Assembly (NCBI GenBank): GCA_903861945.1
Contig: CAIOWM010000156.1
Location: 27,198 to 91,197 of the forward strand
Length of the DNA stretch: 64,000 nt
Direction: 5' to 3'
Source: an uncultured Archangium sp.
GTDB taxonomy: Bacteria; Myxococcota; Myxococcia; Myxococcales; Myxococcaceae
The notes under the pieces were generated by a model. The model worked only from the letters and a program-made list of their open reading frames with translations. It did not search any database and was not told the origin of the DNA. The translations under genes and the position numbers were made by a program. Positions 55,345 through 61,688 of the stretch are shown piece after piece (position 1 is the first letter of the stretch; the number at the start of each line of letters is the position of its first letter).

Positions 55345-57105
55345 ATGGCTCCCCCGCGCGCGAAGACCGCCTTCACCCTCACCGTCACCAAAGACGGCGC
55401 GAGCGTCATGGCCACCTTCGAGAGCGGCGCGGCGCGGCTGGGGCGGGCGCCGGAGAACGACGTGGTGATCAACGACGCGCTCGCCTCGCGCGTGCACGCC
55501 CGCATCTTCCACGAGGCCGGGCGCTTCTTCGTCGAAGACCTGCAGAGCACGGCGGGCACGCGGCTCAACGGGGGCCGGCTCGCCGCGCGGGCCGAGCTCA
55601 AGCCGGGAGATCGCCTCGCCATCGGCCAGGTCACCGTGCTCTTCACCACCGGGGTCGACCCCGCGTCGACGCTCGACGAGTCGGCGCGGCCCGCCCCCAG
55701 CGTGCTCGACCAGGCGACGACCCTCCGGCCTGCCTTCACCCCGCCTCCCCCTCCGCCTGCACAGGGCGCGGCCACCGGTCTCGACGCGTCGACGGTGCTG
55801 CGGCCGGCCTTCAGCCCGCCCCGGCCCAGCGGCACGCACAAGGCCGCGCCGGCGCCGGCGGCCACCAGCGAGAGCTTCAGCGACGTACCCACGGTGGAGC
55901 TCGTCAACCGGGGCCTGGTGAAGCCCCCCACCCCGGTCGCCACCAGCGAGAGCTTCAGCGACGTCCCCACGGTGGAGCTCGTCAACCGCGCGGTGCTCCA
56001 GGGCCCGGCCCCCGCCGGCGCCAGCGCGTGGGACGGGAAGTTCGAAGACGCGGCGACCCGGGAGTTGCTGCCGGGCGAGGCGCTCGCGAAGTCGTCAGCC
56101 GCCAAGGACCTGCTGGCCGAGCAGCCCACGCGGTCGCTGACCGAAGAGAGCAACCGGCTGCTGGCCGCCGACGTGGCCCGCGAGCGGCGGGCGCTGCAGA
56201 AGACGAGCGCCGGCCGCGCGCAGCTGTGGTGGGCGTCGGTGCCAGCGGCGTTGAAGGCCGCGCTCGCCGTGGTCCTGATGCTCACCTTCACCGCGGTGGT
56301 GTGGGTGCAGCAACCGACGGCGGCTCCGACCGGGCCCCGCATGCCCGACGAGCTGGTGCCCAACGGCGACGCGCTGGCGCTCTCGTTCGGCGCGGGCCCG
56401 GGGGCCGAGGTGCAGGTCGCCGAGTCGAAGGCCTTCTTCTTCACGCCCTTCGCCGCGACCCGGCTGGTGGGCGTGCTGCACTTTCGCGCCCACGACTGCG
56501 GGCAGAACGAGGTGCACATCGAGCTCAACGGCGCGCCGGTGGCCTTCGTGCCCGCCGACACCGCGCAGAGTGACGTGGAGCTGGAGCATGTGTTGCCCTC
56601 GGGGCTGCTCAAGGTGGGCGCCAACAACCAGCTCACCTTCGAGAACGTGCGCCAGGGCGACGACGACGAGACCTGGCGCATCGCCGGGCTGTGGGTGGAG
56701 CTGATTCCCCTGCCGGAGCTCACCAGCCAGCAGGCCAGCACCCGGGCGCAGGACTCCATCGACCAGGCCACCCAGCTCTACGAGCTGAAGAAGATCGGCG
56801 CCATCAACCTGTTCCGCGCGTGGAAGAGCTACCGCGAGGCCTGGCTGGTGCTCGAGGCCACGGCCGACCACGACGCCGCCCTGCAGCAGTTCGCCCTGAC
56901 GCGCATGCGCGACCTCCGGCCCGAGCTCGACCAGAAGTGCACCGCCATCCTCGTGCAGTACGAGCAGGAAATGAGTCGGCGGTACCCCAGCCTCAAGAAG
57001 GCGCGGAAAATTTTGCAGGGCGTCCCGGCGCACTTCGGCAAGGAGCACCCCTGCCTCGACATGAGCCGGCACCTGCTGCGGCAGGTGAGCGAGGACGCGA
57101 AGTAG
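55345..57105 (+). CDS. FHA-domain protein with a single TM segment and a large extracytoplasmic C-terminal domain; carries a 78-bp tandem repeat
   Basis: N-terminal FHA: ...ARLGRAPENDVVINDALASRVHARIFHEAGRFFVEDLQSTAGTRLNG...GDRLAIGQVTVLF. A Pro-rich linker follows with ATSESFSDVPTVELVNR twice. The TM is LWWASVPAALKAALAVVLMLTFTAVVWV. A ~280-aa C-terminal domain follows. Confidence 0.75.
   Translation: MAPPRAKTAFTLTVTKDGASVMATFESGAARLGRAPENDVVINDALASRVHARIFHEAGRFFVEDLQSTAGTRLNGGRLAARAELKPGDRLAIGQVTVLFTTGVDPASTLDESARPAPSVLDQATTLRPAFTPPPPPPAQGAATGLDASTVLRPAFSPPRPSGTHKAAPAPAATSESFSDVPTVELVNRGLVKPPTPVATSESFSDVPTVELVNRAVLQGPAPAGASAWDGKFEDAATRELLPGEALAKSSAAKDLLAEQPTRSLTEESNRLLAADVARERRALQKTSAGRAQLWWASVPAALKAALAVVLMLTFTAVVWVQQPTAAPTGPRMPDELVPNGDALALSFGAGPGAEVQVAESKAFFFTPFAATRLVGVLHFRAHDCGQNEVHIELNGAPVAFVPADTAQSDVELEHVLPSGLLKVGANNQLTFENVRQGDDDETWRIAGLWVELIPLPELTSQQASTRAQDSIDQATQLYELKKIGAINLFRAWKSYREAWLVLEATADHDAALQQFALTRMRDLRPELDQKCTAILVQYEQEMSRRYPSLKKARKILQGVPAHFGKEHPCLDMSRHLLRQVSEDAK
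55861..56016 (+). repeat. 78-bp in-frame tandem duplication (26 aa, ATSESFSDVPTVELVNR...)
   Basis: 'gccaccagcgagagcttcagcgacgt(a/c)cccacggtggagctcgtcaacc' recurs with a period of 78 bp, at 55861 and 55939. Confidence 0.8.
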
Positions 57106-57155
57106 GCAGAAGCGCGCTGCCGAACGCGGCTCGGATCCGCTAGCCTTCGCGGCCG

Positions 57156-60420: not shown

Positions 60421-61688
60421 GGCGAGCCCCCCGAGGCGCGGCGATGGTGGAGCTGGCGCTGCTGATGATCGTCCTGGTCCCGATGATCCTCTACACGCTC
60501 TTCCTGAGCGACCTGCTGCTCTACAACCTCGACTGGCAGGAGGCGGTGACCAGCCCGGCGTGGGACGCGGCGCCGCTCGACTTCCCGTCGCTGTCGAGGC
60601 CGGTGGAGGCCGCGGCGCGGGTGCAGGCCATCGACCGCAAGGTGTTCTGCGACCACAGCTCGGCCTACGACTCGTTCAACACCGCGGTGGACTGCGCCGA
60701 CGACCGGCACCACCAGGCGCTGGGCGCGCACCAGTGCTGGATGGGCGGCGGCAAGCAGGTGACGTGCGGGGTGAACCCCGGGCTGGGCAACGTGGAGCAG
60801 AGCTACAACCACCGCTTCAACCGGGGCGGGCTGCTGAGCTGCACCGCGCGCTTAGGCGTGCAGAACTACCTCATCGTGCAGAAGTTCCTCTCGTGGGGGC
60901 AGGACCTGACGCGCACCAGGAAGTTCGAGGGCACCGACGTGCACGGCAACGCCAGCAGCGCGTCCACCTCGAACGCGTGGGTCTTCGGGGCGCAGGGCAG
61001 CGGCGCGAGCTCGCCGTCGGAGATCGAAGGCGAGCCGGGCACCTCGCAGACCGAGACCGAGGACCTGCCGTCGGGCACCACGCGCAGCGACGACTTCTTC
61101 GCCGTGCTGCACGACCCGTGGGCGCTCAACCACCTCGCCACCATTCTCCCGGACGACGGGCAGCGCGAAGCGCACCCCTTCTACGCGCGCGTCGAGCACT
61201 ACTACTACTCGCAGTCGCCGGTGCCCGAGGAGCGGCCGGGGGTCGACGGGGCCGAGACCTACGCGGGCAAGCTGCAGGCGATGGGCGCCCTGGGCCCGAC
61301 GGCCAACACCGAGCAGAACGAAGACGCGATGGGTGACCTGCCGCTGGTGCCCAACCTCGCCTTCAAGGCCGCGAAGGACATCGACGGCGTGCTGGGCTTC
61401 GTCAAGCAGCCCGGCGGCGGCCGGATGATCAGCATGGGGCCCTGCTTCTCGCACGGCTGCCGCTTCGACGCGCCGCCGGTGCCGCCGCCCGACCTGGGGC
61501 TGATTCCCCCGGACCCGGACAACCCGAAGGGGGGCGAGATCCCCGGTGGAGGTGGGCCGCCGACGCCGGTGGGCGCGCCGCCGACCGCGCACGCCACGTC
61601 GGGCGCCACGCCGGCCATGACCGCCGCGGCGAACGCGCCCTCGCCGCCGCCCGCGCCGACCTCGGCCCCGCCGCGCTCGCCGTTCTGA
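60417..61688 (+). CDS. TadE-like (Flp/Tad pseudopilin) protein with a Pro-rich C-terminal tail
   Basis: The GTG start overlaps the upstream TGA as GTGA. The TadE motif is RGAAMVELALLMIVLVPMILYTLFLSDLLLYN. The C-terminus is ...PPVPPPDLGLIPPDPDNPKGGEIPGGGGPPTPVGAPP.... Confidence 0.7.
   Translation: MRRAPRGAAMVELALLMIVLVPMILYTLFLSDLLLYNLDWQEAVTSPAWDAAPLDFPSLSRPVEAAARVQAIDRKVFCDHSSAYDSFNTAVDCADDRHHQALGAHQCWMGGGKQVTCGVNPGLGNVEQSYNHRFNRGGLLSCTARLGVQNYLIVQKFLSWGQDLTRTRKFEGTDVHGNASSASTSNAWVFGAQGSGASSPSEIEGEPGTSQTETEDLPSGTTRSDDFFAVLHDPWALNHLATILPDDGQREAHPFYARVEHYYYSQSPVPEERPGVDGAETYAGKLQAMGALGPTANTEQNEDAMGDLPLVPNLAFKAAKDIDGVLGFVKQPGGGRMISMGPCFSHGCRFDAPPVPPPDLGLIPPDPDNPKGGEIPGGGGPPTPVGAPPTAHATSGATPAMTAAANAPSPPPAPTSAPPRSPF

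Follow-up and report, generated by a model that had tools for sequence, protein, structure and literature searches.

A block of five genes, designated g1–g5, lies at positions 55345–61688 of the 64-kb stretch of DNA from an uncultured Archangium sp. that was analyzed here (the window; G+C content 71%). The five open reading frames (ORFs) are intact, are all on the forward strand and have a G+C content at third codon positions (GC3) of ∼0.94, in agreement with a first-pass annotation, made from the letters alone, that had described a tight block of five co-directional genes. In this study, the block was compared with the Kil system of predatory myxobacteria, and it very probably represents a satellite 'Tip' operon serving a predatory pilus of the Kil type (Tad-like). 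The genes and the overlaps between them are as follows.

55345–57105, + strand: g1, 586 amino acids, with an FHA domain, a Pro-rich linker, a single transmembrane (TM) segment and a conserved domain predicted to be periplasmic
57156–57986, + strand: g2, 276 amino acids, a predicted N-terminally anchored periplasmic protein, homologue of MXAN_1149
57983–58780, + strand: g3, 265 amino acids, a KilM-like, short TadE-type putative minor pilin
58777–60420, + strand: g4, 547 amino acids, a KilN-like, large TadG-type putative minor pilin, presumed to be the exposed tip head
60417–61688, + strand: g5, 423 amino acids, a KilL-like, extended TadE/F-type putative minor pilin
57983–57986, + strand: GTGA, overlap of the g2 stop and g3 start codons, read directly; Shine–Dalgarno sequence GGGAGG
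58777–58780, + strand: GTGA, overlap of the g3 stop and g4 start codons, read directly; Shine–Dalgarno sequence AAGGAGG
60417–60420, + strand: GTGA, overlap of the g4 stop and g5 start codons, read directly; Shine–Dalgarno sequence GAGGAGG

Systems of this kind are already known from two papers published in 2021 and 2025. The Kil system is made up of two clusters with many FHA proteins (Seef et al., 2021; PMC8460266), and Myxococcus xanthus has four KilM–KilN–KilL 'Tip' clusters (Herrou et al., 2025; PMC12075869). Three of these are satellites located far from kil clusters I and II, namely Tip1 (MXAN_0354–0356), Tip2 (MXAN_0738–0740) and Tip3 (MXAN_1146–1148), while the fourth is Tip4 (MXAN_4658–4660); a 'fifth type' of Tip, defined in the figures, was also reported in the 2025 paper. 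The same work places the Flp adaptor KilO (MXAN_1150) in the tip3 cluster, functionally associated with the Tips, and describes two adaptors in M. xanthus, KilK and KilO, the adaptor of Tip1 and Tip2 being encoded away from both. The Tip clusters are needed genetically to prime the KilP pilus, which has been directly visualised in M. xanthus, and capping of the pilus was proposed from structural models; the mechanism by which a Tip is selected was left as an open question (Herrou et al., 2025; PMC12075869). In a 2026 preprint, kilM3, kilN3, kilL3 and kilO were predicted to form one operon. The KilN paralogues of M. xanthus are only 19–37% identical to one another.

The first-pass annotation had proposed a comparison of the products with the Kil proteins of M. 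xanthus by BLASTP and hidden Markov models (HMMs), and in this comparison g2, g3, g4 and g5 match MXAN_1149, MXAN_1146, MXAN_1147 and MXAN_1148, respectively. By BLASTP, g3 is 42% identical to KilM3 (MXAN_1146) over its full length (E = 6e-53), g4 is 29% identical to KilN3 (MXAN_1147) over residues 2–526 (E about 1e-57; 5e-57) and g5 is 31% identical to KilL3 (MXAN_1148) over its full length (E = 9e-41). The order M–N–L of g3–g4–g5 is identical to that in Tip1–4 of M. xanthus. The resemblance to the Kil pseudopilin cluster that had been suspected was thus borne out in so far as the homology is of Kil type and full length; the closest counterpart, however, is the satellite Tip3 and not the pseudopilins of kil cluster II. 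The likeness to the Tip3 cluster (kilM3–kilN3–kilL3–mxan_1149–kilO, MXAN_1146–1150) comprises four one-to-one full-length homologues, tight gene coupling, a satellite position off the Kil core, leader motifs and a Cys-rich KilN. The two clusters differ in that the window lacks a KilO-type Flp pilin, carries the MXAN_1149-like gene upstream of KilM, has a linked gene for an FHA–TM protein and an additional Pro-rich tail on KilL, and belongs to a separate clade known only from metagenome-assembled genomes (MAGs). Primer sequences for the Tip deletions of M. xanthus had no more than chance matches in the window, which is therefore not M. xanthus DNA. Among cultured relatives, the KilN-like protein of Corallococcus terminator is 53% identical to the 90%-identity cluster that holds MXAN_1147 (M. 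xanthus DK 1622) and LILAB_02870.

Each of g2–g5 has an N-terminal hydrophobic segment, and g3, g4 and g5 are predicted to carry a leader, a prepilin-peptidase site and a hydrophobic alpha-1N helix. The assignment of g3 as TadE-like holds without reservation (PF07811, E = 4.9e-13, 49.4 bits against a cut-off of 22.9), with the leader and peptidase motif MRRRG/QAAVE. For g5, which had been described as a second TadE-like protein with a Pro-rich tail, the pilin motif (MRRAPRG/AAMVE) and the tail are present, but the TadE score (E = 0.029, 14.9 bits) lies below the same Pfam cut-off, and the protein is better described as KilL-like on the basis of its 31% identity. In an alignment with six homologues, its Pro/Gly-rich C-terminal extension is common only to the sister locus L003. 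The reading of g4 as TadG-like holds at the level of the family: the TadG-like N-terminal model PF13400 is matched by 63 of 75 aligned relatives (best E = 5e-7), whereas g4 of the window has no Pfam match, PF13400 at E ≤ 0.1 included. Its motif, RRG/QVLAL, lacks Glu5, as does that of KilN3 (QRG/QSIVL), and five of its 13 Cys residues are invariant in the family.

An AlphaFold2 model of g4, built from a 22-sequence alignment (predicted local distance difference test score, pLDDT, 80; predicted template-modelling score, pTM, 0.73), has a helix at residues 4–113, two further long helices at 122–190 and a beta scaffold. KilN4 has been described as long helices with a beta scaffold, with no homologue in the PDB reported (Herrou et al., 2025; PMC12075869), and the predicted model of g4 fits this description. 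A Foldseek search of the PDB with the model gave no match at E ≤ 0.001, and profile searches of PDB sequences with the g3, g4 and g5 families found nothing.

As had been described, g2 is a small N-terminally anchored protein, with a hydrophobic segment at residues 9–31. It is 28% identical to MXAN_1149 over residues 8–272 (E = 1e-15), and the HMM of the g2 family finds MXAN_1149 with E = 2e-30. Although the direct Pfam scan gave no match for g2 of the window, the precomputed assignment for its family is PF27226 (AF_1845); a profile search of PDB sequences with the family found nothing. A homologue of g2 follows KilL in nearly all of 80 related loci, making it a conserved fourth gene of Tip clusters, and no paper that mentions MXAN_1149 was found in the literature.

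The remaining protein, g1, agrees with its earlier description as an FHA protein with one TM segment and a large periplasmic domain. The FHA domain occupies residues 31–94 (PF00498, E = 6e-17, 62 bits against a cut-off of 20.7), and a single TM-like segment at 294–324 is followed by a C-terminal domain of 262 residues. Four of the five phosphothreonine-binding residues (G, R, S, H and N) are present, with the GR and SxxH motifs kept. The FHA region also scores above the cut-off on Yop-YscD_cpl (PF16697, the cytoplasmic domain of YscD of the type III secretion system, T3SS), with 48.6 bits. In the alignment, the g1 family is conserved over its full length, with an FHA domain and a variable Pro-rich linker preceding the TM segment and a periplasmic domain of ∼260 residues after it.

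The connection between FHA proteins and the Kil system that the first-pass annotation had pointed to is supported by the MAG locus L087, to whose FHA–TM protein g1 is homologous from end to end. The genes of L087 are ordered zf-HC2, KilM, KilN, KilL, a small g2-like ORF, a KilK-like Flp pilin, CpaB, T2SSF, T2SSF, FHA and FHA-TPR; this is the order reported for MXAN_4661 down to MXAN_4648, so that L087 is a locus of Kil-cluster-II type. The HMM of the g1 family matches its FHA protein over HMM positions 2–544 (E = 9e-51), and BLASTP gives 31% identity in the periplasmic domain (E = 3e-29) and 38% in the FHA domain. Because g1 matches the L087 FHA protein encoded after the T2SSF genes, it is taken to be a paralogue of the platform-associated Kil FHA membrane protein at the MXAN_4649 position, the equivalence with MXAN_4649 being read from synteny with L087 and not from the M. 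xanthus sequence. The resemblance of the window to Kil cluster II (MXAN_4648–4661: FHA proteins, KilH/G/B, KilK and Tip4), as seen through L087, extends to the architecture of g1 and its homologous periplasmic domain and to the local presence of KilM, KilN, KilL and a small MXAN_1149-like protein in both, with a Flp pilin there too. In contrast, the window has no platform or CpaB genes, and its KilN shares only ∼21% identity with the clade to which the KilN of L087 belongs.

In 30 of the 38 loci of clade B, the clade that contains the window, and in five basal clade-A loci, the tip genes have a g1-family FHA gene next to them. The FHA gene is directly upstream where it shares the strand of the tip genes, and just downstream where it lies on the opposite one. 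No such gene was found within 10 kb of Tip3 in M. xanthus or at the cultured clade-A loci.

Two further ORFs of L087 bear on the gene order of Tip clusters. The ORF at 13030–13662, after KilL, shows an MXAN_1149-like motif by eye, with an HMM score below the E = 1e-5 cut-off, and is followed at 14420–14650 by the KilK-like Flp gene. If this motif holds, a unit of KilM, KilN, KilL, accessory protein and Flp pilin would be common to all Tip clusters.

The relatives of the block were collected in several ways. A word-indexed search of 5.8 billion proteins with g4 detected 24 homologues, all from metagenomes or MAGs, of which the best share 61 and 56% identity with it; querying the same database with a profile added no new relatives, and a full HMM search from the alignment of g4 homologues retrieved 2685 representatives at E ≤ 1e-3. 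Scanning the genome collection with a single protein yielded no match. When 185,579 species genomes were scanned under the guidance of a profile, 201 relatives were obtained, from which 80 loci were kept. The kept loci are limited by the search pattern, M. xanthus being absent since PNLFSPYW of its KilN3 falls outside the pattern. All 80 are from Myxococcota or, in a few MAGs, unresolved 'Deltaproteobacteria', and they include cultured Archangium, Corallococcus and Vitiosangium. When HMMs from the five families of the window were run against all related loci, KilM-like, KilN-like, KilL-like and g2-like genes were found in that order in essentially every one, usually followed by a gene for a small Cys-rich secreted protein and then by one for a Flp pilin of 59–75 residues with the motif G/QAMVEY.

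In a neighbour-joining tree of 85 KilN-like sequences (88 detected, with three duplicate loci removed), the window and its sister L003 fall in clade B, which consists of MAG sequences only, with no cultured member. The nearest group is clade A (MXAN_1147, Corallococcus and Archangium), with a mean identity of 31%, compared with 26–27% to clades C and D; clade B was nearest to clade A in 200 of 200 column resamplings. Ten distant KilN-like representatives that were looked up by cluster yielded no named proteins. Going by isolate labels, none of the sampled genomes has both a clade-A and a clade-B locus, within the limits that the search pattern sets on detection, and this is compatible with clade B being the counterpart of Tip3 in another lineage. 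The window and the sisters L003 and L004 depart from the common arrangement in that the g2-like gene precedes KilM instead of following KilL, and in that two genes located after the cluster in nearly all other clade-B loci, the Cys-rich small gene and the one for a KilO-like Flp pilin, are missing. This rearranged order of five genes is kept between the window and its sister at 56–60% protein identity, and invariant residues are retained; from this it is argued that the genes are functional and under continued selection.

The g2–g5 genes are tightly coupled. The GTG start codons that overlap the preceding stop as GTGA, noted previously for the last three genes, were confirmed at 57983, 58777 and 60417, and the spacing between the Shine–Dalgarno sequence and GTG is 5–7 nt at all three junctions. 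The regularity of these junctions had been called unusual; however, four-base overlaps are a common operon junction, and the same 4-nt overlap is found between KilN and KilL in most related loci, so the pattern is ordinary. Tight coupling with Shine–Dalgarno sequences fits with the production of a stoichiometric complex.

The core machinery of such a pilus was looked for by Pfam scans of the ∼45 ORFs of the window. These contained no A24 prepilin peptidase, T2SSF platform protein, CpaB/RcpC, secretin or intact TadA/CpaF, and the canonical tad/flp set (TadV, RcpA/CpaC, TadZ, TadA/CpaF, TadB/C and flp) was likewise not found among them. Of the Kil core (KilA/C/F, KilB/G/H and the major pilin KilP), no gene is contained in the 64 kb. 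The absence of core genes is expected because satellite Tip clusters sit far from the Kil motor and secretin. The earlier statement that peptidase, ATPase, platform and secretin genes are all missing is therefore correct for intact genes, but a degenerate PilT-like fragment of the T2SSE family is present at 44817–45420 on the reverse strand (considered together with 43555–44780, also on the reverse strand). It has a Walker A motif, the Walker B stretch is missing, the N-terminal part apparently lies in another reading frame, and the fragment is directly upstream of a gene for a response regulator with an EAL domain. It may be a pseudogene or the result of a sequencing frameshift. It was rejected as the cognate motor, being of PilT type, without Walker B, apparently split between frames, 10 kb away and on the opposite strand.

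On sequence grounds, the block is best classified as a Kil Tip cluster that has a Tip3-like architecture and belongs to a separate clade. Homology, gene order, pilin motifs, a KilN-like fold and conservation of the module were all observed here. There are also points that weigh against this assignment. MXAN_1147, the only named M. xanthus Tip protein (KilN3) in the clade comparison, is no closer to clade B (29%) than to clades C and D (30%), and because it is about equidistant from B, C and D, the block is called Tip3-like rather than a demonstrated orthologue of Tip3. No KilO/KilK-type Flp adaptor pilin is found in the 64-kb window or in the sister L003, and g3 and g5 are the only ORFs with a Flp motif; since the adaptor of Tip1 and Tip2 in M. 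xanthus is also encoded elsewhere, its absence from the window does not exclude membership of the Tips, and it is plausible that the genome carries an adaptor gene at another site. Finally, the FHA domain of g1 reads STAGT where S-x-NGT is conserved, with the Asn replaced. This Asn is also replaced in the sister L003 (SHFGT) and is retained in other relatives.

By homology with M. xanthus Tip1–4, g3 (KilM-like), g4 (KilN-like) and g5 (KilL-like) would be made as prepilins and trimmed by a prepilin peptidase encoded elsewhere. The hydrophobic helices at their N-termini could then bring the three proteins together as a heterotrimeric spearhead, which would prime polymerisation of an Flp major pilin on a Kil motor, platform and secretin that are also encoded elsewhere, would finish at the tip of the pilus and would presumably serve in predation. 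The g2 protein would be a membrane-anchored periplasmic accessory, most likely a factor for assembling or holding the tip, and g1 an inner-membrane FHA protein whose most probable role is to dock onto the platform and link the tip to an assembly process that is phospho-dependent or contact-dependent. A comparable logic is found in the minor-pilin complexes of type IVa pili and the type II secretion system (T2SS), PilVWX–PilY1 and GspHIJK, in which a co-translated set caps the filament, primes assembly and carries a functional head. These are analogues and not family members, with no sequence or detectable fold relationship to the proteins of the window.

An ordinary adhesive Flp/Tad pilus, serving attachment or biofilm formation and unrelated to contact-dependent killing, could also use g3–g5 as its minor pilins of the TadE, TadF and TadG types. 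Function is not readable from sequence, g3 is a true member of the TadE family and the g4 family matches the TadG-like N-terminal model; moreover, TadEFG proteins of non-predators have been argued to form similar tip complexes (Herrou et al., 2025; PMC12075869). The likeness to the canonical proteins (Aggregatibacter tad and Caulobacter cpa) covers the PF07811 N-terminus, PF13400 at the family level, the G/XXXXE motif and a presumed role in priming. However, the closest characterised full-length homologues of four of the genes are the predation proteins of Tip3, the linkage to an FHA gene parallels the abundance of FHA proteins in the Kil system and the block lies outside any tad operon. The proteins are also much larger than their canonical counterparts, with lineage-specific C-terminal domains, and sequence-detectable homologues of them are seen only in Myxococcota, as in the 80 kept loci described above. 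An ordinary pilus is accordingly considered improbable. It is still less probable that the block is a decaying or orphaned Tip cluster that has been rearranged, has lost its adaptor KilO and is no longer assembled onto a pilus. The missing Cys-rich and KilO-like Flp genes in the window and in L003 and L004, together with the lost FHA Asn, would fit such decay, whereas the five intact ORFs with their high GC3, the invariant family residues, including the five invariant Cys of g4, and the same rearranged order in a relative at 56–60% identity speak for maintenance; M. xanthus, furthermore, has two adaptors, one of which is encoded away from Tip1 and Tip2.

The topology of g1 suggests another way in which the proteins might work, namely that g3–g5 form a short T2SS-like periplasmic pseudopilus that expels effectors, with g1 as an inner-membrane scaffold resembling SctD or GspL. 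With an FHA-like cytoplasmic domain whose score on the YscD model exceeds the threshold, a single TM segment and a periplasmic domain, g1 resembles the SctD (YscD/PrgH) inner-membrane ring proteins of the T3SS, and both T2SS-like delivery and a dependence of Tip1–3 on a needle-less T3SS have been discussed (PMC12075869). A profile search of PDB sequences with g1 found FHA domains only, the periplasmic domain having no match to the solved chains of SctD, PrgH and GspL, and a single-sequence model of this domain (pLDDT 45) was too poor to judge its fold. In addition, a KilP pilus has been seen directly in M. xanthus, where its priming requires the Tips. A pseudopilus of this kind, which would not be exclusive of a Kil Tip operon, is regarded as very unlikely, the least probable of these alternatives.

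Around the block, the 3' end of g5 is flush against a convergent gene for a cyclic-nucleotide (cNMP)-binding protein. A promoter scan detected no sigma-70-like site and no terminator-like site on the + strand in the scanned region, a result that is uninformative for myxobacteria. Divergent from g1, a major-vault-protein (MVP)-like gene occupies 53096–55276 on the reverse strand (MVP_shoulder, E = 1e-29). None of the flanking MVP-like, cNMP-binding, R2K ATP-grasp and histidine kinase genes recurs near any of the 88 related loci, and a functional link between the block and its MVP-like neighbour was rejected, with the adjacency conserved in 0 of 88.

Elsewhere in the window, three consecutive genes at 4310–9463 on the + strand encode a PilZ-receiver protein, a Ser/Thr kinase with an MshEN (c-di-GMP-binding) domain and an FHA protein; an MshEN-domain gene is also found at 3554–4549 in L087, a few kilobases upstream in that Kil-cluster-II-type locus. 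A 1385-residue ORF at 35041–39198 on the + strand encodes a type IA topoisomerase (Toprim and Topoisom_bac) fused to a RecQ-type helicase (DEAD, Helicase_C, RecQ_Zn_bind and HRDC), with a domain order opposite to that of reverse gyrase.

Some features of the related loci are absent from the window. In clade-B loci, a Lys- and Cys-rich small secreted protein of 73–90 residues is encoded between the MXAN_1149-like and KilO-like Flp genes, a position at which M. xanthus has no gene. It was located as follows.

L001, 13606–13845: Lys-/Cys-rich small protein
L005, 12764–13036: Lys-/Cys-rich small protein
L006, 10234–10464: Lys-/Cys-rich small protein
L007, 11465–11713: Lys-/Cys-rich small protein
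L002, 13302–13523: Lys-/Cys-rich small protein

Three clade-B loci also have a YcaO–TfuA pair a few kilobases from the FHA-linked tip cluster, accompanied by Exo_endo_phos in all three and by EamA in two.

L001, 17508–19551: YcaO–TfuA pair
L005, 3179–5109: YcaO–TfuA pair
L006, 11404–13382: YcaO–TfuA pair

Tip clusters also occur in tandem. The Archangiaceae MAG locus L050 has two KilMNL clusters 4 kb apart (1901–5245 and 9246–13344), and Myxococcus stipitatus has two KilN3-like genes with the locus tags NVS55_06150 and NVS55_06180 (30 apart).

The new leads offered by these comparisons are the FHA linkage, the universal MXAN_1149-like partner, the rearranged order, the missing adaptor pilin and the separate clade. 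A more far-reaching possibility, put forward tentatively and thought rather unlikely, is that clade B is a previously unclassified type of Tip with a selector of its own. The g1-like protein would recognise its KilMNL in the periplasm, its FHA domain would link the choice of Tip to Ser/Thr phospho-signalling or to the sorting platform of the needle-less T3SS, and the MXAN_1149-like protein would be a universal and overlooked tip chaperone. If the selector were real, it would explain how the machine chooses its Tip, a question that the 2025 paper had left open.

The Kil pilus is a central contact-killing device of predatory myxobacteria, and its interchangeable Tips are thought to set the range of prey. 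The locus described here shows that the diversity of Tips in uncultured Myxococcota extends beyond the four types of M. xanthus, and the MXAN_1149-like protein and the Tip-linked copy of the Kil FHA protein are two conserved candidates for tip assembly and tip selection.

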